A DNA stretch of 64,000 bases from an uncultured Clostridium sp. (GTDB lineage Bacteria; Bacillota; Clostridia; Oscillospirales; Acutalibacteraceae): positions 3,290 to 67,289 of the forward strand of contig CAKUYY010000005.1 in the NCBI GenBank assembly GCA_934717555.1, in the 5' to 3' direction. The position numbers and the translations under genes were made by a program. Below the pieces are notes generated by a model, which did not search any database, had not been told where the DNA came from, and saw nothing but the letters and a program-made list of their open reading frames with translations. This document shows, one piece after another, positions 1 through 46,608 of the stretch. Every line of letters begins with the position of its first letter. The stretch's first letter is position 1.

Positions 1-247
1 TGACCAGATTCTGGGCATTGGTGGACAGGAACAGCGTCCGCAGTTTATAGATAACCTCGTCGGCACGGGATTCGTCCTCGGCAATCTCCGGGTTCAGGCG
101 GATCAGGGCAGCCCGGACCATGGATTCCACCATGACGTCACTCTCATCCCGGTCCAGTTCTTCGGCAGGGATGTACTCCCAGCCGTTCCTCTGTAAGGTG
201 GTCAGGAGCATCTGCTCGGTGGTGTTGTCTTCGTTGAACTTTGGCAT
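1..247 (-). CDS. hsdR: Type I restriction enzyme R subunit (HsdR), first 82 codons only; the gene continues past the left window edge
   Basis: Truncated, so absent from the ORF track. The reverse complement from ATG(247) reads MPKFNEDNTTEQMLLTTLQRNGWEYIPAEELDRDESDV...IRLNPEIAEDESRADEVIYKLRTLF, a typical HsdR N-terminus. An AAGGAG RBS overlaps the hsdS stop 3 nt upstream. The position after hsdM-hsdS is canonical. Confidence 0.7.
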   Translation of the reverse strand, partial: MPKFNEDNTTEQMLLTTLQRNGWEYIPAEELDRDESDVMVESMVRAALIRLNPEIAEDESRADEVIYKLRTLFLSTNAQNLV

Positions 248-250
248 GAT

Positions 251-1414
251 TTACTCCTTTCTCCCGGTCCACAAAGCATCTTCCAAGATGCAGCGCTTGG
301 TGGCTTGTAGGGATGTGATGGTGTTTTGAAGGGCAGATTTGGATCTATTGGCTTTTTTGATGATTGCTTCAAACTCTTCTTGAAGATTTAATGGTGGAAG
401 TGGTTGTTTCAATTTGCATGCCTTTGATATGAGAAAATGAGCAACCGTTGTAGCTCCCAATCCGCCTTCGATTTGCGACCACACCGTCGGCATAGTAAGT
501 CCGTATGTAAAAAAAGTTTCATTTATCGAGAGCTTTTTTCTGAATAACAAAACATCGGCATCTTTAAAGTAGAAACGCTCCCCTTGCTTTATGATATACG
601 TTTTTCCAATAGTGCTTGTAGCTGAAACGATAATATCTCCTGCTTGTACTTGTTCTTCTTTTGGCCTGCTATTATAAAATTCTTCGGATACAAAAAATTC
701 ATTGGATAGTGGTTCTCCATTGGCTAGTTGAACCATATCTCTGACGCGAATAAATGGAATGTTCCCATCTGTTTTCCACTCTGATTTTAAGATACGTTTA
801 CTCGATGAAATTAAAAATATATTTTCCATTAAATCCACTGGCCATCTGCAGTGGTCGATATCGTCTTCACCAAACATCTCAATAAACCGCGCCTGCACCA
901 GGGCATCCGTTTCGGTGAGCAGTTTCTGATAGGCCTGCAAGGTGTCATTGATAGACCACAGCACCTCGGCCAGCTTCTTTTGCTCATCCATGGGCGGGAG
1001 GTCAAAGGTGTAGTTTTTCAGATTTTCCCACTTGACCCGGGGGGACAGAGAACCCGCTGATTTACCCATGGCAAATTCAAACCGATTGTCATTCTGAATG
1101 ATGAAGGGAAGCAATTCCGGCAAAAGCAGTTCCTCTTTGGCACGGATCACCGTAATGTCGCCGGAGCAGATGCCGTCAAAGGGGGCCTGTGCCGCCTTTT
1201 TCAAATAGGCACGTCTGCGGCCGAAGAGCATATCTCCCTTGTGGAACCGTTTGGTAAAAGTGTTATCGGTATCCATATCCCAGTTGGAAAGCGTGACGTC
1301 TCCCGGAGTGATATGCTCCAGGCCCACAATGGGTATACCGGTCTTATCATCCTTGTATGTTTCGCGGCTCTCCACCGCCACATCTCCCAATTTTATCTGT
1401 GACACATCACTCAC
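251..1414 (-). CDS. hsdS: Type I restriction-modification specificity subunit HsdS (two target-recognition domains)
   Basis: 387 aa. Two TRD-like halves are each followed by a conserved helical spacer (LPPMDEQKKLAEVLWSINDTLQAYQKLL and LPPLNLQEEFEAIIKKANRSKSALQ). The start overlaps the hsdM stop by 8 nt. Confidence 0.85.
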   Translation of the reverse strand: MSDVSQIKLGDVAVESRETYKDDKTGIPIVGLEHITPGDVTLSNWDMDTDNTFTKRFHKGDMLFGRRRAYLKKAAQAPFDGICSGDITVIRAKEELLLPELLPFIIQNDNRFEFAMGKSAGSLSPRVKWENLKNYTFDLPPMDEQKKLAEVLWSINDTLQAYQKLLTETDALVQARFIEMFGEDDIDHCRWPVDLMENIFLISSSKRILKSEWKTDGNIPFIRVRDMVQLANGEPLSNEFFVSEEFYNSRPKEEQVQAGDIIVSATSTIGKTYIIKQGERFYFKDADVLLFRKKLSINETFFTYGLTMPTVWSQIEGGLGATTVAHFLISKACKLKQPLPPLNLQEEFEAIIKKANRSKSALQNTITSLQATKRCILEDALWTGRKE

Positions 1415-2894
1415 CTCCCATCAGCGTGTTCAGAGCGTTGTAATTCTCCCACAGTTCTGCGGAAGCCGCACACCAGTCTTCATAGCGTTCCTGGGTTGTG
1501 CCAATCGAAACAGGCGCCGCTGTGGAAGCCGGGTCTTTTACATACAGCGGAATACTGAGAGCAAACCCATTTTTCTCAATTTCCCGGATGGACACCTTTT
1601 TGGCAATGGCACCATCGGTCTGAAATTCCCTGTAGGCCTTCTCGATGGTCTCGATATGGGACGGCTCCAGAAAACTTTCGGCGTTCTTTCGGGTCACCTC
1701 GTTCACGGCGTTGATGAACAGCACATGCCCCTTGTGGCTGTCCGGCTTTTTGGTTCGGCAGATGACGATGCAAGCCTCCATAGGGGAATTGTAAAAGAGA
1801 TTGGGCCCCAGGCCGATGACGCACTCCAGCAAATCGGAGCGCACCAGCTTTTCCCGCATATCCTTCTCCTCGTTGCGGAACAGCACCCCATGAGGAAAAA
1901 GGACCGCGCACCGGCCGGTGTCGTTTTCCATACTTTTCAAAATATGCTGGAAGAACGCATAGTCGGCGCGGCCCTGGGGCGGAACCCCCAGAAAGTTTCT
2001 GCCGTATTGGTCCGCCTCAAAGGCTTTGCGGTTCCACTGGCTGATGGAATAGGGCGGATTGGCCAGTACCACATCAAACTGTTTCAGCCGCCCGCCCTCC
2101 ACAAAGGCCGGAGCCGCGAGGGTGTCTCCGTTGACAATGTGGAAATCCTCAATGCCGTGGAGGAATAGGTTCATGCGCCCGATGGAGCAGGTCAGCGCAT
2201 TGAACTCCTGGCCATAAAGAGAGACATTGCGCCACTCCTTGTGCTGTTCTTTGAGATAGGCAACGGAAGAAACCAGCATACCGGCACTGCCACAGGTAGG
2301 ATCATAGATGGATTCTCCCGGACGAGGCTCCAGCAATTCTGCCATCAGGTGCACTACCGTCCGGTTTGTATAGAATTCCTGAGCGGTGTGGCCGCTGTCG
2401 TCAGCAAACTTCTTGATAAGATATTCATAGCCGCGCCCTAATTCATCCTCCGGACAGTTTGCCAGCGAAAGTGTCTGTGTGCTGAAATGCTCCAGCATAT
2501 CTTTCAGCAGACGATCGGGAAGCCGGCGCTTGTTGGTCCAGGTGCCGTCCCCGAAAATGCCGTGGAGCTTATCCGGATTCGCTTTCTCAATAGCGCGGAA
2601 AGCATCCTGGATTGCCTTGCCTACATCTTGTGTGACATTGCGCACAGCGTTCCAGTGGGCGTCTTTGGGGAGGACAAAGCTGTGAGTTTCCTCCCAGCTG
2701 TCTGCCTCGGGCCCGTTTTCCTGAATTGCCTTTGCGGTCTCCTCCTCATACACATCGTTGAGACGCTTGAAGAATAAAAGCGGAAAGATGTACTGTTTGT
2801 AGGAACCGGCGTCGATGTGGTTGCGAAGGAGAACGGCTGAACCCCACAGATAAGACTCCAGTTCCTCCTGGGTAATCTGCTTACTCATGGACAT
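1407..2894 (-). CDS. hsdM: Type I restriction-modification N6-adenine DNA methyltransferase subunit HsdM (paralog 1)
   Basis: 495 aa. It has the HsdM N-terminal domain (YIFPLLFFKRLNDVYEEE), EFYTNRTVV, motif I DPTCGSAGML and motif IV ANPPYS. It overlaps the upstream ORF by 14 nt. Confidence 0.9.
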   Translation of the reverse strand: MSMSKQITQEELESYLWGSAVLLRNHIDAGSYKQYIFPLLFFKRLNDVYEEETAKAIQENGPEADSWEETHSFVLPKDAHWNAVRNVTQDVGKAIQDAFRAIEKANPDKLHGIFGDGTWTNKRRLPDRLLKDMLEHFSTQTLSLANCPEDELGRGYEYLIKKFADDSGHTAQEFYTNRTVVHLMAELLEPRPGESIYDPTCGSAGMLVSSVAYLKEQHKEWRNVSLYGQEFNALTCSIGRMNLFLHGIEDFHIVNGDTLAAPAFVEGGRLKQFDVVLANPPYSISQWNRKAFEADQYGRNFLGVPPQGRADYAFFQHILKSMENDTGRCAVLFPHGVLFRNEEKDMREKLVRSDLLECVIGLGPNLFYNSPMEACIVICRTKKPDSHKGHVLFINAVNEVTRKNAESFLEPSHIETIEKAYREFQTDGAIAKKVSIREIEKNGFALSIPLYVKDPASTAAPVSIGTTQERYEDWCAASAELWENYNALNTLMGGE

Positions 2895-5298
2895 AACCTC
2901 CTTCCATCAGCAATTTCCGCATTTTAGCTTCCGCGGTACGGACGGCCTCCAGTGCGGCGAAGTAGTTCTGGCGAACCACGGCAGGAGGAATGGTTTCCTG
3001 CTTTTTCCGTTCAATATATCGCTTAACACTCAGGTCAAAACCGCCATCTTCCACGTCTTTCAGCGTGACAACTTTGCATCGCTCGATGACATCGGTGTAG
3101 TTGCTGTACAGGTCATACAGTGTCTGGATGTTGGCCGGCGAGAGCTCGTTTTGCGCCCGTTTTGGGGTATAGACCCCAGAGCCGTCAATCAGGCAGATGC
3201 GCCCCTTGTGGGTGTGGCTCTTCTTGTTGTTCAAGTAGAGGATACAGGCCGATACACCGGTGCTGTAAAATACACCGCTGGCCAGGGTGATGACGGCTTC
3301 CAACTTATCCGAAAGCACCAGCTGCTTGCGCATTTCGCCCTCTTTACCAGAATGGAAGAGCACGCCCTGAGGAAGCACTACAGCACAGCGACCATTTTTC
3401 GGATCCATGGATTTGACCATGTGCTGAAGCCAGGCGAAGTCTGCATTGGAGTCCGTCGGGCAGCCCCACAGATTTCGCCCATATTGGTCCGATTCAAACT
3501 GAGCAGATCCCCACTTGGCCATGCCGAAGGGAGGATTGGCAAGCACACAGTCAAAAGTTTTGATTCTGCCGCGTTCCAGAAACAGCGGATTGCGAAGCGT
3601 GTCTCCCTGTTTAACTTGAACATCTTTCGCGCCGTGAAGATACAAATTCATGCGGGCAATGGCAGACGTAGACAGGTTGTTCTCCTGACCGTAGATTCTA
3701 CCATAGGCAAGGCGGTCATTGTGCATGTGGCGGATTGCCTCGATTAACATCCCACCAGTGCCGCAGGCAGGATCGTATACGGTTTCTCCGGGCTGCGGGT
3801 CAAGCAGATTGACCATCAGCTTCACAATGGTACGGGGCGTGTAAAACTCGCCAGCGTTTTTCTTGGAAAGGTCTGCAAACTTTTTGATGAGGAATTCGTA
3901 GCTGTCGCCCATAATGTCTGCGGAGTAATCTTTGTTGCCGACCCGGATGCTGGACATGTGCTCGATCAGATTTTTGAGCCGCTCATCAGACAGCTTGTTC
4001 TTATCTGTCCAGGTGGCATCGTCAAAGCTGCTGAATACACCGGACAGGGTATCAGGATTTGCTTTCTCAATCCCGGTCATAGCGTTTACGATGGCCTTGC
4101 CGACATCCTTGGTTACCTTGCGGACGTCTTCCCAATGACAGCCATCGGGAATGACAAAGGAGTGCATTTCCTCGGCCTCTGCATATTCCACATCACCGCC
4201 GGAAAACGCCAGTGCATCTGCGTATTCCTCGTCATAAACATCCGAAATTCTCTTAAAAAAGAGAATGGGGGTTACATAGCTTTTGTACTCATCCTGGTTG
4301 ATGGGACCGCGTAAGATGTTGCAGGCCTCAAACAAATGGTTGAAAAGCTTCTTGCTTGTGGTTTCTTCCATTTCAGCTTCAGTGGATCGTACATCTTCCT
4401 CTGCAGCCTGCACGGCATTTTCGATTAGGGTGGCACGGTCTTCTCCGGACACCTTTCGAGTCTCATCCCGCTTGACCGGAATAGGAAGGTTCCGCATATG
4501 TCTCTCCATCACGGGAGTATATTTGTTTTCGAACTCTATCAGGATTTGAAGCAGCCGCTCGTCCAGAAAGGTCAAGGCATGTTTGCGAATGTCCGCCGGA
4601 ATACCATAGTAGGCCTCCGAAACACCGCCGCAGATGGCTGCCAAGGTATCACTATCTCCGCCGATGGAAATGGCGTTTCGGATGGCATCTTCAAAACCGG
4701 TGGATTCAAAGAAGGCCATCAATGCCTGAGGGACTGTATCTTGGCAGGTTTCATTGAAACGGTAAGTTGACCTGATGCCGTCGAGCGTAAAGTTCAGCAG
4801 GTAGTAGTTCTGCTCGATATAATCCCGGATTTCCAAAATACTGCTTCCGGTTCGGGCCATGTAAATGGCGGCTGCGGTAGCCTCAGCACCTTTTAACCCC
4901 TCTGGATGGTTATGGGTCACCTCGGTAATTTTTCGGGAAAGCAGCTTTGCTTCCTCCAGACTGCTGGCCGCAAAGCCGGCAGCGCTGACCCGCATGGCAG
5001 CTCCGTTTCCGAAGCTGTTATAGGGGTGCGGATCATCTGAAAATACCCACTTGGAGAACGCTGTGCCATATCCGCAGCCCGGATAATTTCTGCCTATGGA
5101 CTGCATGTACTCCACGGATTTTTGCGAAAGATTGCTATAATCCGGGGCGCTCTCCAAAATTGCCTTTGCCAATGCTAATGTCATGACGCTGTCATCGGTG
5201 GCAAAGCACTTATAGGTGAGAAAGTCAAAATCTTTGGTTTTAATATTGTTCCATTCAAAACGGGAACCTACGAGATCCCCAATGATTGCTCCTAGCAT
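2881..5298 (-). CDS. ADP-ribosylglycohydrolase (ARH/DraG-like) domain fused to a full HsdM-type N6-adenine DNA methyltransferase (paralog 2)
   Basis: The ORF track gives 2881..5361, which starts at a GTG. An ATG at 5298 preceded by AAGGAGacagaaatt is the more likely start. N-terminal ARH motifs: GAIIGDLVGSRFE, FATDDSVMT, SFGNGAAMRV, HNHPEG, GGDSDTLAAICGG. C-terminal HsdM motifs: PILFFKRISDVYDEEY, EFYTPRTIV, DPACGTGGML, ANPPFG. Confidence 0.8.
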   Translation of the reverse strand: MLGAIIGDLVGSRFEWNNIKTKDFDFLTYKCFATDDSVMTLALAKAILESAPDYSNLSQKSVEYMQSIGRNYPGCGYGTAFSKWVFSDDPHPYNSFGNGAAMRVSAAGFAASSLEEAKLLSRKITEVTHNHPEGLKGAEATAAAIYMARTGSSILEIRDYIEQNYYLLNFTLDGIRSTYRFNETCQDTVPQALMAFFESTGFEDAIRNAISIGGDSDTLAAICGGVSEAYYGIPADIRKHALTFLDERLLQILIEFENKYTPVMERHMRNLPIPVKRDETRKVSGEDRATLIENAVQAAEEDVRSTEAEMEETTSKKLFNHLFEACNILRGPINQDEYKSYVTPILFFKRISDVYDEEYADALAFSGGDVEYAEAEEMHSFVIPDGCHWEDVRKVTKDVGKAIVNAMTGIEKANPDTLSGVFSSFDDATWTDKNKLSDERLKNLIEHMSSIRVGNKDYSADIMGDSYEFLIKKFADLSKKNAGEFYTPRTIVKLMVNLLDPQPGETVYDPACGTGGMLIEAIRHMHNDRLAYGRIYGQENNLSTSAIARMNLYLHGAKDVQVKQGDTLRNPLFLERGRIKTFDCVLANPPFGMAKWGSAQFESDQYGRNLWGCPTDSNADFAWLQHMVKSMDPKNGRCAVVLPQGVLFHSGKEGEMRKQLVLSDKLEAVITLASGVFYSTGVSACILYLNNKKSHTHKGRICLIDGSGVYTPKRAQNELSPANIQTLYDLYSNYTDVIERCKVVTLKDVEDGGFDLSVKRYIERKKQETIPPAVVRQNYFAALEAVRTAEAKMRKLLMEGGYVHE

Positions 5299-5389
5299 AA
5301 TTTCTGTCTCCTTATGCGGACTCTTTATGATGCTGCATGAATAGGATATAGCATTTGTCACCTACATTCATCACGGGGCGATTCCTCCT

Positions 5390-7009
5390 TCAAAAAGTCT
5401 GAAGCTTGGTGAGAACTTTAGTCCAACGTTTTTCAGCTGCAGCTACAGTTTCTTTGTAGTTCGTCAGTTCTTCGAGGTACTCCTTGACCACCGCTTTCTG
5501 TGTGTCTAGCAGGGGGATGGGAACTTCCAAAACTTTCAGATCCCGATAGCTGATATTCATCACAGTCGTGCCTTGTTGGGCGCTGCTAATGAGCTTGTTA
5601 CCGATAGGGCTATCCAAGAAAATTTTCAAGTAGATGCTGTCGAGCATCTTGGCGTCTGGCCGGATTACGATCAAATTGGACGAGGCGATACATGGATAAC
5701 TCTGTGAGTGAAACACAGCGGTTCGAATTGCGGTTCCCCTGGCAGGAAGAAGTACATCCCCCTCTTGCAGCAGATAGTTGAATACTTTACGTTCCTCTTC
5801 CTGCAAGTGCTCCAACCCGGCGTAGTCAATTTCATAATCGCCTATATTGGAGATGTTCACTATACCGATGTTACCGGATGGATCTTTCTTGGTTATGGCT
5901 TTGCCACGGAATACCTCTGCAACATTCCCAATCATATCTTTCCGGAGGTTAGAACTTTGATAGTTCTGATAGTCCTCGTCTTGTTGCGCAAAAATCTGAT
6001 CAATGTTCCAGTCTCCTTGTTCTTCCAGCTCGGACAGCATGACAAAGGTATCGTCTTTCACTTCTAGTGATGTGACCGCCTCTCGGCGGGTCTTCTTGGA
6101 AGAAGAGTATCTCCGGACAACAATATCAGTGTCGTCGTACGGCCGATTGTTTTCGAGGTCCAGTAGATAGACCTTAATGCCGCAATATGATATGGTCCCT
6201 TCAGGAAGTTCTCCAATTTCCCTAATGGTATAAGTCGTCTGAACAAACTGTCGAAGATCGCTAATCTTTCCAGACGCAAAGGTGATTCGGCCTGGAAGAG
6301 TAATCACCAGGCGACCGCCATCATTCAAGTGGAGCAATAGATTCTCTAGTGCAACCATCTCGAATTCTCTACATATAAAGTTTGGGTCGTCTGACAGCAT
6401 CCGGCCGCCAAAGTTCGGACAGGCAAAGATAAGATCGAATCGGCTGTTTGTGAACTCATAGCGGTAAATGTCAGATATAATGACTTCCACATTATCATAT
6501 TTTCCGAAGATGTTTTCTAAGACTCGGGCATAAATCATGTTTTGAGTCGTAAGCACAAACTTCGAGTTAATGTTCTCATCAATTATAGACTGCAAGTTTG
6601 GGACAAACTTTTCGGCCTCGGCGATGAGAACCGTTTGGGGGTGGAAGACAAAACGATCTGTGTAGACATTTACCAACGCTTTGGGGAGCAAAGGCTTCTT
6701 GGATGTTGATAATATTTGAGCCATGAGTCCTTCCAAATCAGCATGTCGGACCTGATCGATACTCTTGTAGACAAGAATAAAATGTTCCTTGTCACGGAAA
6801 GGATTTCTGATATTTAGTTTGTCGGCGGATTCCAACAAGGAAATATAAAGCTCATCGTCAGTGGCCTTAGCGTTCTGGTTTTGGAATCGTTTCTTGACTT
6901 TATCTATCAGAACGATCGCAGCAATGCTATCATCATGCGCGACTGCACTTCTGATCACATTCCAGTAGGCTGGGAGTTTATTTTGAACGTCGCTTCTCAT
7001 CGTTTTCAT
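5390..7009 (-). CDS. Methyltransferase-like protein (degenerate motifs I and IV) fused to a single HsdS-type target-recognition domain
   Basis: 539 aa. FDLIFACPNFGGRM and LNDGGRLVITLPGRITF resemble N6-MTase motifs IV-VI, but CPNF replaces NPPF/Y and no DPxxGxG loop is seen. The C-terminal ~200 aa resemble a half HsdS (GDVLLPARG, LIVIRPD, VPIPLLDTQKAVVKEYLEEL coiled-coil). An AGGAGG RBS sits at 7013-7018. Confidence 0.6.
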   Translation of the reverse strand: MKTMRSDVQNKLPAYWNVIRSAVAHDDSIAAIVLIDKVKKRFQNQNAKATDDELYISLLESADKLNIRNPFRDKEHFILVYKSIDQVRHADLEGLMAQILSTSKKPLLPKALVNVYTDRFVFHPQTVLIAEAEKFVPNLQSIIDENINSKFVLTTQNMIYARVLENIFGKYDNVEVIISDIYRYEFTNSRFDLIFACPNFGGRMLSDDPNFICREFEMVALENLLLHLNDGGRLVITLPGRITFASGKISDLRQFVQTTYTIREIGELPEGTISYCGIKVYLLDLENNRPYDDTDIVVRRYSSSKKTRREAVTSLEVKDDTFVMLSELEEQGDWNIDQIFAQQDEDYQNYQSSNLRKDMIGNVAEVFRGKAITKKDPSGNIGIVNISNIGDYEIDYAGLEHLQEEERKVFNYLLQEGDVLLPARGTAIRTAVFHSQSYPCIASSNLIVIRPDAKMLDSIYLKIFLDSPIGNKLISSAQQGTTVMNISYRDLKVLEVPIPLLDTQKAVVKEYLEELTNYKETVAAAEKRWTKVLTKLQTF

Positions 7010-7034
7010 CCTCCTACTTCTGATCTTTGAGTGT

Positions 7035-7063
7035 ATTGTACCATGATTTCACACACACGTCAA
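7035..7063 (-). promoter_or_regulatory. Sigma-A type promoter of the RM-derived operon
   Basis: The minus strand reads TTGACG-17 nt-TACAAT, with TGg immediately upstream of the -10 (extended -10-like). It lies about 25 nt upstream of the AGGAGG RBS and ATG at 7009. Confidence 0.6.
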
Positions 7064-7219
7064 CCGTGAGCATTATTTTGGTATGTAAGTACTAAAATAA
7101 TGTTTTGCTTTATAAAACTACTACTTTACAATTCTGCAAGCAGATTACATAGACGAGACGAAAAAGCGGCTACTCATCACTCTAAAGGAGAAATCTATTC
7201 CTTTCTGTCTTATCATATG

Positions 7220-7253
7220 AAAAAGGGTTGTCCCAAACAGGACAGCCCTTTTT
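7220..7253. terminator. Rho-independent terminator hairpin (bidirectional) isolating the RM operon from upstream debris
   Basis: AAAAAGGGTTGTCC-caaaca-GGACAGCCCTTTTT. The 13-bp stem has one G-U pair and is flanked by A and T runs. Confidence 0.65.
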
Positions 7254-7308
7254 CTACCATCTTTAATTTTTTGCCTCACTCCTTGCTTCGATCAGAAAAT
7301 CTGTTTTC

Positions 7309-7449
7309 CTAGGTTGTCAGTTCCTTCTGCTCCTGTTCGCTGGCGTAGAATTTTTGAATCTCAGGTACAAGAAACCGAGAGAAGGAATCAATGATGGACT
7401 GCGGCAGTTCGATTGTGTATGGGTTCTGATGTTTTTCTTGGCTGGCCAT
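7309..7449 (-). CDS. Small hypothetical protein (46 aa), possibly a mobile-element accessory gene
   Basis: Below the ORF-track cutoff. It reads MASQEKHQNPYTIELPQSIIDSFSRFLVPEIQKFYASEQEQKELTT and is followed by the 7220-7253 terminator. The RBS is weak. It resembles small proteins I associate with Firmicute conjugative elements, but this is unverified. Confidence 0.3.
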   Translation of the reverse strand: MASQEKHQNPYTIELPQSIIDSFSRFLVPEIQKFYASEQEQKELTT

Positions 7450-7497
7450 GGTGAGTTGCCCCAATAGCAAAACCTTTGCGGCTCAACTCAGCCCATC

Positions 7498-7590
7498 TCA
7501 CACTCCTTCCCGGAAGATACACAGCTGCCAAATATTGTGCCACTGTCCAGAACGAGTGTGGGCGATTTCAAAACCTGCGGATTTTCTCAT
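7498..7590 (-). CDS. Candidate 30-aa micro-ORF whose RBS lies inside a long hairpin
   Basis: MRKSAGFEIAHTRSGQWHNIWQLCIFREGV. The GGGAAGGGAG RBS is 5 nt upstream of the ATG and forms the 3' arm of the 7596-7643 inverted repeat. Confidence 0.2.
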   Translation of the reverse strand: MRKSAGFEIAHTRSGQWHNIWQLCIFREGV

Positions 7591-7595
7591 AGTAC

Positions 7596-7643
7596 TCCCT
7601 TCCCATCTGGGCTTTTCTCATGAAACCCCCAGATGGGAAGGGA
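7596..7643. repeat. Perfect 16-bp inverted repeat with a 16-nt loop
   Basis: TCCCTTCCCATCTGGG (7596-7611) and CCCAGATGGGAAGGGA (7628-7643) are exact reverse complements. Confidence 0.9.
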
Positions 7644-7699
7644 ACGAATCGAATGATACTGGATAAGTTGGTCAAGCGCCTGTTGAATTAACAGCTTCG

Positions 7700-7936
7700 T
7701 TAAGGGGATTTGGGCAGTACTGCGTGTTCATCTGCACCTGCATGTATCTCAGCGGCCTTGACACTACTGAAATTGTAGCCATGACGTTTACAAAATTTGC
7801 GATAGCGCTCAGTGAAGGCAGCAAGACTCTGACTGCACACACAGTCCAGATGCCAGAAAGCCTCAGCAAAATCGACCCATTTCTGGCTGCCATCCTCCCG
7901 TGCAGGGCTTTTAATATGGTTTAGAAAGCCGTCCAT
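7700..7936 (-). CDS. Hypothetical 78-aa ORF, possibly a gene fragment
   Basis: ORF track only. There is no recognisable motif and the RBS is weak. It sits in a region with several short overlapping ORFs in different frames, which is consistent with a decayed gene. Confidence 0.2.
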   Translation of the reverse strand: MDGFLNHIKSPAREDGSQKWVDFAEAFWHLDCVCSQSLAAFTERYRKFCKRHGYNFSSVKAAEIHAGADEHAVLPKSP

Positions 7937-8102
7937 TTCTCATTGCCGATTCCATCAGTTTCGTGACTCGAACATACTTCATTGTTCTTGCAGTTGCCAG
8001 ACCGCAAGCTTATGTTACAACATAAGCAGTTTTTCTTTCTTCATCATCCGCATTTGCCTTCTTTTGAACCACTCGCCATGCGAGTGGCTTTCTTTATACA
8101 AG

Positions 8103-11289: not shown

Positions 11290-11373
11290 TGGTGCGAGCG
11301 ATGGGACTTGAACCCACACGTCATAGACACACGCACCTCAAACGTGCCTGTCTGCCTGTTCCAGCACACTCGC
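11290..11373 (-). tRNA. tRNA-Leu (anticodon GAG), class II with long variable arm, encoded CCA
   Basis: Folded by hand from the reverse complement: acceptor GCGAGTG/CGCTCGC; D-arm CTG-GAACAGGCAGA-CAG; anticodon stem CACGT/GCGTG with loop TTGAGGT; variable stem GTC-TAT-GAC; T-arm GTGGG-TTCAAGT-CCCAT; discriminator A plus CCA. Confidence 0.9.
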
Positions 11374-46295: not shown

Positions 46296-46608
46296 ACAAT
46301 CAGTTGAAATACGTGGAAGAGGAATAGTAGGGACATTGAACCCTTCAGAGAGTTGCCGGTTGGTGGAAGGCAGTGGGGAATTTGTTTTGAACTGGCCTTG
46401 AAGTAGCGCGTTGAATCCTTGCAAGAGAGGTAGTAGGCGTTGCCGGGACCTGACCGTTACAGCAGGAGGATATAAGATCATAAAGTTTGATCCGTATCTA
46501 AAAAGAGGGCATATTTCTTTCCGACAAGAAATATGAATTAGAGTGGTACCGCGTGGAACGATTACGAGTTCTTCGTCTCTAAGGAAATGGAGATGAAGGG
46601 CTTTTTTT
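46296..46608 (+). promoter_or_regulatory. T-box riboswitch leader of leuA
   Basis: It carries an AGAGAG motif, a GGTGGAA distal-loop-like element and the T-box sequence AATTAGAGTGGTACCGCG (46536-46553). The terminator is CTTCGTCTC-10 nt-GAGATGAAG followed by GGCTTTTTTT (46571-46608). Confidence 0.85.

Follow-up and report, generated by a model that had tools for sequence, protein, structure and literature searches.

The stretch analysed here (referred to as the window) comprises 64,000 nucleotides of contig CAKUYY010000005.1 from an uncultured Clostridium sp., at the beginning of which lies a restriction-modification (RM) operon of five minus-strand genes in the order P539, ARH-M1, M2, S and R. 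The second gene of the operon, which is the subject of this work, encodes an ADP-ribosylglycohydrolase (ARH) domain joined to M1, a DNA methyltransferase (MTase) subunit of the HsdM type. The fusion gene and the genes downstream of it exhibit the following features (coordinates are those of the window, protein lengths are in amino acids, aa):

5308..5313, minus strand: Shine-Dalgarno sequence AAGGAG, 9 nt before the ATG at 5298.
5298-2881, minus strand: fusion gene ARH-M1, 805 aa from the ATG at 5298.
4519..5298, minus strand: ARH/DraG-type ADP-ribosylglycohydrolase domain, residues 1-260 (Pfam, structure matches, AlphaFold2).
4354..4518, minus strand: fusion-specific connector, residues 261-315, with a predicted β-hairpin (263-276), a predicted helix (288-305) and an acidic tether, EEDVRSTEAEMEETT.
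2881..4353, minus strand: M1 (m6A-type) moiety, residues 316-805, with HsdM_N, catalytic domain and C-terminal tail (Pfam, PDB match).
3832-3855, minus strand: AGEF motif of M1 (motif search).
3751-3774, minus strand: motif I of M1, DPACGTGG (motif search).
3526-3537, minus strand: motif IV of M1, NPPF (motif search).
3250-3264, minus strand: small loop of M1, STGVS (motif search).
1407..2894, minus strand: gene of the M2 methyltransferase (m4C-type, 493-495 aa, with NPPY, AQEF and NSPME), which overlaps the fusion gene's stop.
251..1414, minus strand: HsdS specificity subunit, 384-387 aa (Pfam Methylase_S).
1..247, minus strand: 5' end of hsdR, first 82 codons, running past the window edge and identical to the start of a 971-aa HsdR.

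The ARH-M1 gene is a genuine in-frame ARH-HsdM fusion, and its HsdM part is complete. The open reading frame (ORF) extends over 2881..5361 of the minus strand without interruption (826 codons if counted from a GTG), and both its frame and coordinates and the start at the ATG behind AAGGAG, proposed in an original prediction made from the sequence alone, were confirmed. That prediction had described the product as an ARH domain fused in-frame to a full HsdM and had suggested a profile search for the three domains concerned. The Pfam search confidently identified all of them, namely ADP_ribosyl_GH on residues 1-233 (E-value 2e-34, 120 bits with a cut-off of 26.2, profile positions 3-281 of 287), HsdM_N on residues 320-448 (E-value 5e-23) and N6_Mtase on residues 459-768 (E-value 6e-93), and every motif quoted in the prediction is present. 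In the ARH part these are GDLVGSRFE (7-15), TDD (34-36), HNHPEG (129-134) and GGDSDT (213-218); they are followed by the acidic stretch EEDVRSTEAEMEETT at residues 300-314 and by the M1 motifs AGEFYTPR (482-489), DPACGTGG (509-516) and NPPF (588-591). The HsdM moiety looks catalytically competent.

The assembly collection contains the same 805-aa protein, 100% identical, in 38 of its indexed blocks, and 23 contigs with the gene were read. Because these contigs come from independent metagenome assemblies, the fusion is no assembly or frameshift artefact, and the earlier claim that the gene is not split by a stop or a frameshift is upheld. The cluster of proteins with 90% identity around the fusion protein has 178 members, including the RefSeq entry WP_204802807.1 ("N-6 DNA methylase [Oscillibacter valericigenes]"), and the architecture is frequent in sequence databases, where it is automatically labelled either as "N-6 DNA methylase" or as "ADP-ribosylglycohydrolase family protein".

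Most database matches that cover the ARH domain and the junction are only 345-620 aa long. A truncated "ARH-HsdM_N" protein was considered as the native form and rejected after inspection of the DNA: the short forms correspond to contig ends, to frameshifted genes (loci L001-L003, L015 and L036) or to genes broken right before motif I by serine-recombinase elements. Loci L001-L003 (GCA_037461075.1 and two Logan assemblies) share a one-base frameshift in the HsdM N-terminal domain, located around L001:11190-11220 and identical in the three assemblies, which divides the protein into 398 and 399 aa; L015 and L036 have other frameshifts. These could be pseudogenes, sequencing errors or cases of phase variation. 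A conserved internal start that would yield an ARH-less M1 was likewise rejected, as Met310 is not conserved.

The sequence search against solved structures identified ARH3 as the best match of the ARH domain (E-value 4e-14), followed by the ARH of T. thermophilus, MJ1187 and DraG. In the alignment with ARH3 the motifs FE/YE, TDD and GGD(S/T)DT coincide, and the metal-site residues of the ARH domain are E15, T34-D35-D36, D215, D217 and T218, which we take to be the counterparts of the ARH3 metal ligands E41, T76/D77/D78 and D314/D316/T317. Alignments comprising 18, 29 and 58 homologues show each metal-binding and catalytic residue to be either invariant or conserved to at least 90%, in agreement with the earlier observation that the metal-binding positions look intact. 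The domain also matches PHROG 6572 (E-value 1.5e-52). Its scores with the DraG equivalog (57, with a cut-off of 337) and the Tri1 equivalog (31, with a cut-off of 490) are low, and the match to TIGR02662 is weak (E-value 1e-15, far under the cut-off). An AlphaFold2 model of residues 1-509 of the fusion, calculated from a 58-sequence alignment (mean pLDDT 80), has pLDDT values mostly above 90 in the ARH domain, and Foldseek matched its N-terminal part to ARH3, MJ1187, T. thermophilus ARH and DraG (probability 1.0, target TM 0.58-0.62) and its C-terminal part to PacII M1. Altogether, the ARH domain is apparently active, with an intact binuclear-metal active site.

Between the ARH domain and M1, a small folded connector is predicted, followed by a flexible tether of acidic character. 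In the model, residues 261-300 have pLDDT values of 80-94, and residues 308-339, including the acidic tether, have values below 50. Among the 29 full-length fusions described below, the region 256-315 is the least conserved part of the protein (mean top-residue frequency 0.52), and the ARH and methyltransferase domains are equally conserved (0.79 each). Stand-alone homologues of the ARH stop at about residue 262-270.

The original prediction had regarded the HsdM part as an ordinary Type I HsdM and had overlooked the second hsdM gene (1407-2894) that adjoins the fusion gene. This gene alters the classification of the system: the fused moiety is an M1 (m6A, NPPF), and M2 (m4C, NPPY), S and R follow directly downstream. 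In PDB searches the M1 moiety matches PacII M1 (7vru_A, E-value 4e-140, 471 bits) better than PacII M2 (7vru_B, E-value 5e-118, 398 bits), and M2 matches PacII M2 (7vru_B, E-value 1e-171, 575 bits) better than PacII M1 (7vru_A, 430 bits). The M1 moiety and M2 are 44% identical to each other, and the corresponding value for M1 and M2 of PacII is 45% (PMC5100572). The NSPME loop of M2 is identical to N375-E379 of M2.PacII as quoted in the same paper, and the second motif reads AQEF, not AAEF, throughout the clade. With their neighbouring residues, motif IV is VLANPPF in M1 and VLANPPY in M2, and the M2 loop is FYNSPME. Residues 6-274 of HsdS align to S.PacII (7vru_C, E-value 2.5e-31); its first target recognition domain (TRD1, residues 1-183) is 59-67% identical between phyla, compared to about 25-44% in the remainder. 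TRD1 is presumably the conserved, cytosine-recognising half; in the published systems the conserved N-terminal TRD of S was ascribed to cytosine recognition, and TRD2 is variable (PMC5100572). Contigs L004-L007 have the same operon with the full 971-aa HsdR, and the translation in the window is identical to the start of this HsdR.

In non-canonical Type I systems M1 introduces m6A on one strand and M2 introduces m4C on the other, as parts of a heterotrimeric M1M2S methylase (PMC5100572, PMC9613975), and the genes are ordered as NPPF gene, NPPY gene, S and R (Morgan et al. 2016, PMC5100572). The order in the window, read on the minus strand, is M1-M2-S-R, in which the NPPF gene precedes the NPPY gene, and the same holds for related loci. 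Canonical Type I systems (families IA-IE, M2S1R2) use a single hsdM twice and place m6A on both strands, whereas here there are distinct NPPF and NPPY hsdM genes. Based on the M1 and M2 motifs, the reciprocal best matches to PacII, the gene order, the 44% identity and the conserved TRD1, we classify the system, with high confidence, as a putative PacII-type non-canonical m6A/m4C Type I RM system whose M1 bears an ARH; its M1M2S complex would recruit HsdR for restriction. The M1-M2-S-R order, an M1 with AGEF and NPPF and an M2 with NPPY and NSPME are shared with PacII, DbaKI, BceNI and other systems of this subgroup (PMC5100572). The differences are that PacII M1 has 499 aa and no ARH, whereas here the ARH and the connector add about 315 aa, that the M2 motif reported in that paper is AAEF and here is AQEF, and that here the additional gene P539, encoding a pseudo-MTase with a single TRD, lies upstream. 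As far as can be read from the genes, the only unusual element of the system is the N-terminal addition of about 315 residues on M1, and no ADP-ribosyl hydrolase is mentioned in the papers on PacII-type systems (PMC5100572, PMC9613975).

A distribution scan using one genome per GTDB species detected full-length fusions of 799-815 aa in 29 species genomes from at least 8 phyla; about three quarters of the fusions are full length, and overall at least 30 species genomes from many phyla contain the fusion. The hosts are Clostridia, Bacilli (Bacillus, Paenibacillus, Brevibacillus, Robertmurraya), Erysipelotrichaceae, Selenomonadaceae, Deferribacteraceae, Synergistaceae, Akkermansia, Bacteroidales, Saccharibacteria and Thermoguttaceae. 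An M2 homologue directly follows the full-length fusion in all 29 loci, usually with overlapping stop and start codons. The NPPF motif is kept in every one of the 29 M1 homologues, as are NPPY and N(S/A)PME in every M2 whose ORF reaches these motifs. In related loci HsdS and HsdR follow M2, or HsdR lies ahead. Profile scans and clustering of ORFs revealed no ADP-ribosyltransferase (ART) in the operon, among its neighbours or in the 38 fusion loci.

Bacteria of the same kinds frequently encode stand-alone ARHs of 260-300 aa with 62-75% identity to the fused domain. Analysis of their genomic neighborhood revealed no conserved gene, and no ART, sirtuin or macrodomain was found there. Fused and stand-alone ARH domains interleave in a rough neighbour-joining tree, which lacks the strength to tell whether the fusion arose in a single event. 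Homologues from the ARH subfamily with 40-64% identity are also present in phages and on plasmids. In Porphyromonas phage phage005b (L092, 5001-5783) and Bacteroides phage Versailles (L093, 5001-5774) the ARH gene closes a block of early or accessory genes, beside regulators and a DNA methyltransferase; further phage copies lie among early or accessory genes in metagenome records of jumbo phages, and the plasmid copies (H1-H25) were found on large plasmids of C. botulinum and C. sporogenes. The fusion itself was not found in the plasmid and phage collections, which yielded only stand-alone ARHs. The element PvCTn of P. vulgatus encodes an ARH and a Type I RM system. The phage and plasmid copies suggest that ARHs of this subfamily may play a role in conflicts between mobile elements and their hosts.

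The ARH has also been lost. A sister of M1 that is 64% identical lacks the ARH and resides in a normal M1-M2-S operon (P0122/L094). In three further loci (L095-L097) M1 belongs to the 90%-identity cluster of the window protein, and all that is left of the ARH ahead of it is a frameshifted remnant with an N-terminal deletion, seen as a 102-aa ORF at L095:188-496, in which GGDSDT has become GEEWDT; M1, M2 and S are intact in all three. Members of the 90% cluster with 493-498 aa were considered as further ARH-less M1 proteins and rejected, as they are M2 proteins. Because both the ARH-less sister and the lineage with a decayed ARH keep M1-M2-S, the ARH is, judging from these comparisons, an optional accessory module that is gained and lost and that stands outside the methylation and restriction machinery.

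The original prediction had suggested that the ARH might strip ADP-ribose from incoming DNA, undo attack on the complex by phage ARTs or tie restriction to NAD-derived signals. We propose that the ARH would act as an eraser, present in one copy per M1M2S complex, which would strip ADP-ribose from targets within reach of its tether. The lack of an ART in the 38 fusion loci points to a writer that acts in trans; the marks would be laid by ARTs encoded elsewhere, most plausibly those of phages or conjugative elements, either delivered or expressed. The substrate would be the RM subunits, which we slightly favour, or the DNA being scanned, and erasure would keep methylation and restriction working under ART attack. 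The M1-M2 interface in the structure of PacII M1M2S with DNA (7VRU/7VS4; Zhu et al. 2022) is built from the N-terminal domains of both methyltransferases, the complex surrounds the DNA like a closed clamp, and M1.PacII was expressed with an N-terminal SUMO tag (PMC9613975). Since the M1 N-terminus lies at the interface in the DNA clamp and M1 can be made with a SUMO tag, the tethered ARH could reach several targets; on a tether of 10-30 residues these could include the DNA leaving the clamp, M2, S and docked HsdR. ARTs have been documented or postulated to be injected or transferred together with the DNA of an invader, as in the case of T4 Alt and of the ART domains in polyvalent proteins of phages and conjugative elements (PMC5512222). 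Enzymes that erase ADP-ribosylation from DNA take part in defence and counter-defence, among them the DarG macrodomain, the NADAR protein DarG1/AdfN (PMC11825919) and the ARH-like "DarG3" of DarHTG (PMC13069673).

Taken as one statement, the classification of the fused moiety as a PacII-type M1 together with the tethered-eraser mechanism has, in our estimation, not quite an even chance of being correct. We further speculate, more tentatively, that phages or conjugative elements may blind restriction by ADP-ribosylating either the Type I complex or DNA, be it their own or incoming, and that the tethered ARH may erase this mark, which would constitute a counter-counter-defence; this we regard as possible, if on the unlikely side. 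Several points weigh against a tethered eraser dedicated to the RM complex. In the literature searched we did not find ADP-ribosylation of a Type I RM enzyme reported. The substrate class (Arg-, Ser- or nucleic-acid-linked ADP-ribose) is not readable from the sequence. The fused ARHs are not separated from the stand-alone ones in identity, tree position or conserved neighbours, and given this interleaving nothing indicates that they have specialised on a substrate linked to RM. The operon tolerates losing the ARH, as seen in P0122/L094 and L095-L097, and a long flexible tether would fit equally well with two functions that are simply inherited together.

The main alternative is one that we think rather unlikely: the protein may have two independent functions, with a general ADP-ribose eraser fused to a gene of a mobile RM operon and kept by co-expression or co-transfer. 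Such an eraser could provide Tri1-like broad immunity to ART toxins or clear O-acetyl-ADP-ribose (OAADPr) and ADP-ribose adducts, without any mechanistic tie to methylation or restriction. The wide occurrence of closely similar stand-alone ARHs without conserved neighbours, their interleaving with the fused ones, the poorly conserved and partly disordered connector and the loss of the ARH from operons that kept M1-M2-S all agree with this explanation, as does the frequent clustering and fusion of defence genes. However, a general eraser would be better served by a free enzyme than by one copy on a scarce DNA-bound complex, the fusion is found intact, with both active sites conserved, in the 29 species genomes and at least 8 phyla, and a structured connector specific to the fusion (263-305) is predicted with high confidence.

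An endogenous switch of the DraT/DraG kind appears improbable. Here a host ART would silence an RM subunit, for instance in response to DNA damage or NAD stress or once the system has been acquired, and the fused ARH would reactivate it or sense NAD-derived small molecules. DraG, the founding member of the family, is such a switch (the match of our domain to TIGR02662 is the weak one mentioned above), Type I systems need control of restriction alleviation, and the ARH is located on the methylase core, which contacts HsdR. Nonetheless, there is no ART in or near any of the 38 loci, the ARH-less sister and the decayed variants retain the rest of the operon, and the phage and plasmid copies of the ARH subfamily point to conflict between genomes, not to host regulation.

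A catalytically silent ARH with a role in binding or structure, for example as a sensor of ADP-ribose or NAD, as a surface for docking or as a decoy that phage proteins would bind, is very improbable. A pseudo-enzyme does exist in the same operon, namely P539 with its dead MTase-like domain, but the metal ligands, HNHPEG and GGDSDT of the ARH are invariant or nearly so among homologues, and the only decayed copy lost metal residues (GEEWDT) along with its reading frame, which suggests that selection acts on catalysis. Finally, a sequencing or assembly error that joined separate ARH and hsdM genes can practically be dismissed: related loci do have frameshifts or splits in the gene (L001-L003, L015, L036), but these lie within the HsdM part and never at the ARH/HsdM junction, and the identical ORF recurs in the independent assemblies and the same architecture in a RefSeq isolate protein and the 29 species genomes.

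Comparison with other known systems places the fused ARH in the ARH3/DraG/Tri1 family (PF03747), with which it shares the all-α ARH fold and the same binuclear metal ligands, ARH3 being the closest solved structure. It differs from the solved members in being only about 20-24% identical to them, shorter (about 260 aa) and attached to a DNA methyltransferase. In DraT/DraG and Tre1/Tri1 the cognate ART adjoins the hydrolase, whereas no ART adjoins the ARH in the window, and the pairing with a cognate ART beside the hydrolase that is typical of DarTG and Tre1-Tri1 is absent from the operon and its neighbours. DarG, DarG1/AdfN and DarG3 are likewise ADP-ribose-removing enzymes engaged in phage-bacterium conflict, and DarG3 has a reported ARH-like fold; they are antitoxins or phage orphans, whereas the ARH described here is fused to an RM methylase and has no DarT or other ART partner.

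A precedent for a second-line module embedded in a Type I RM system is the PrrC anticodon nuclease of the EcoprrI locus. PrrC is a separate toxic effector triggered on inhibition of the RM system, in contrast to the ARH, a hydrolase without obvious toxicity that is covalently fused. The notion in the original prediction that HsdM subunits normally carry no accessory catalytic domain is not absolute, as there is an nSTAND1 NTPase-HsdM protein (P0233, 1290 aa), which shares with PrrC/EcoprrI and with our fusion an accessory conflict-type module attached to the Type I methylase core. In the search of representative proteins, P0233, P0169, P0212, P0181, P0240 and P0168 were 33-38% identical to the M1 moiety; those other than P0233 have N-terminal extensions of 120-585 aa without a Pfam match. 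These domain arrangements suggest that accessory modules have repeatedly become attached to the N-terminus of HsdM.

The remaining features of the window are as follows:

7035..7063, minus strand: promoter-like site TTGACG-17-TACAAT with extended TG, just upstream of P539 (consensus match only, 10/12 positions).
5390..7009, minus strand: P539, first gene of the operon, 539 aa, with a degenerate MTase-like domain, one TRD and a coiled-coil tail.
11293-11373, minus strand: tRNA gene (Rfam).
46305-46583, plus strand: T-box leader (Rfam, 116.7 bits).

P539 has a weak Pfam match to N6_Mtase and a match to Methylase_S. The family alignment revealed that its motif I is replaced by IAEAEKF and that motif IV reads CPNFG instead of NPPF (variants in the family are CPNFG, VPVFG and IPIFG). 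Its TRD matches Esub1 of S. pyogenes (PDB 8VSQ, E-value 1e-38), an orphan half-S protein without an assigned function that binds paratox, a phage protein. A homologue of P539 precedes ARH-M1 in about half of the related loci; in three loci (L009, L038, L039) a relative of 577-600 aa, in which motif I is intact and "NYPF" is present, stands in its place together with a 175-aa ORF. P539 may be a regulator, a decoy or an alternative specificity factor.

The RM operon (window 1-8000) has a GC skew of -0.01 to -0.03, unlike the rest of the window (8001-64000), where it is -0.05 to -0.18, and this is consistent with horizontal acquisition; the genes of both parts are on the same strand and their GC content is similar (0.46-0.51). 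The RM island is flanked by ogt/HhH-GPD repair genes and, beyond the window, by smpB. Apart from the T-box leader and the tRNA gene, the Rfam scan of the window reported nothing above the gathering score.

Clustering of ORFs from the 38 fusion loci revealed a single recurrent extra gene, a tyrosine recombinase accompanied by multiple hsdS fragments in 10 loci, located downstream of M2 (L001, L013, L020, L027, L030, L032, L033, L036, L043 and L050). Judging from the gene content, the recombinase together with the full and partial hsdS genes is an hsdS shufflon, predicted to confer phase-variable specificity. In many of these loci the TRD1 half of HsdS, the conserved one, is also encoded as a separate ORF of about 196 aa. 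The window contains only one hsdS and lacks the recombinase.

In unrelated genomes the M1 gene (L009/L010, L011, L019) and once M2 (L014) are broken at the same nucleotide, after ...GTATAYGA, and the DNA beyond the break carries genes of large serine recombinases. The insert in L011 is the end of a prophage with lysis and tail genes, and that in L009 is a small element whose genes include an excisionase-like one (HTH_17). In the window the corresponding site lies at about 3775-3785 on the minus strand, comprises the codons V-Y-D just before motif I and is intact. The coding sequence of hsdM motif I therefore looks like a recurrent attB for elements with serine integrases, where insertion would switch the RM system off and excision would possibly switch it on again. 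Another locus (L008, Logan ERR14030524, 1-16359) contains P539 and ARH-M1 that are 94-95% identical to those of the window, within DNA resembling an integrative and conjugative element (ICE) with genes for a serine recombinase, an nSTAND NTPase, RepA_N, ParB, PcfM and DUF3846; M1 of L008 is cut at residue ~588-608, at motif IV.

The original prediction did not recognise the locus as a described system. This stands for the fusion, as we found no paper describing an ARH-HsdM or ARH-M1 fusion, a mention in a 2015 review not being excluded, but does not stand for the two-methyltransferase Type I RM system, which has been described before. Hence the restriction system is already known, and the fused hydrolase is the part that is new in the literature found.

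ADP-ribosylation is a weapon on both sides of the phage-bacterium conflict, used by DarT against DNA, by CmdT against mRNA and by T4 Alt and Mod against host proteins. To our knowledge, it has not so far been connected to restriction-modification. If the coupling of the ARH to the RM system were real, ADP-ribosylation would join the known anti-restriction strategies; if it were not, the gene would be an ordinary M1 with a passenger domain. An ARH on a Type I methylase core nonetheless offers a concrete and testable link between ADP-ribosylation and restriction-modification: either RM complexes or the DNA they inspect may be targets of ARTs from invaders, or two defence functions travel together. 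The fusion also marks a distinct and widespread sub-lineage of the little-studied m6A/m4C Type I systems, with hosts among gut Clostridia, Bacilli, Bacteroidales, Akkermansia, Synergistota, Saccharibacteria and others. If the counter-counter-defence is true, the fusion would be the first RM enzyme to have a built-in activity that erases a post-translational or nucleic-acid modification, and ADP-ribosylation would represent a hitherto unrecognised anti-restriction strategy.

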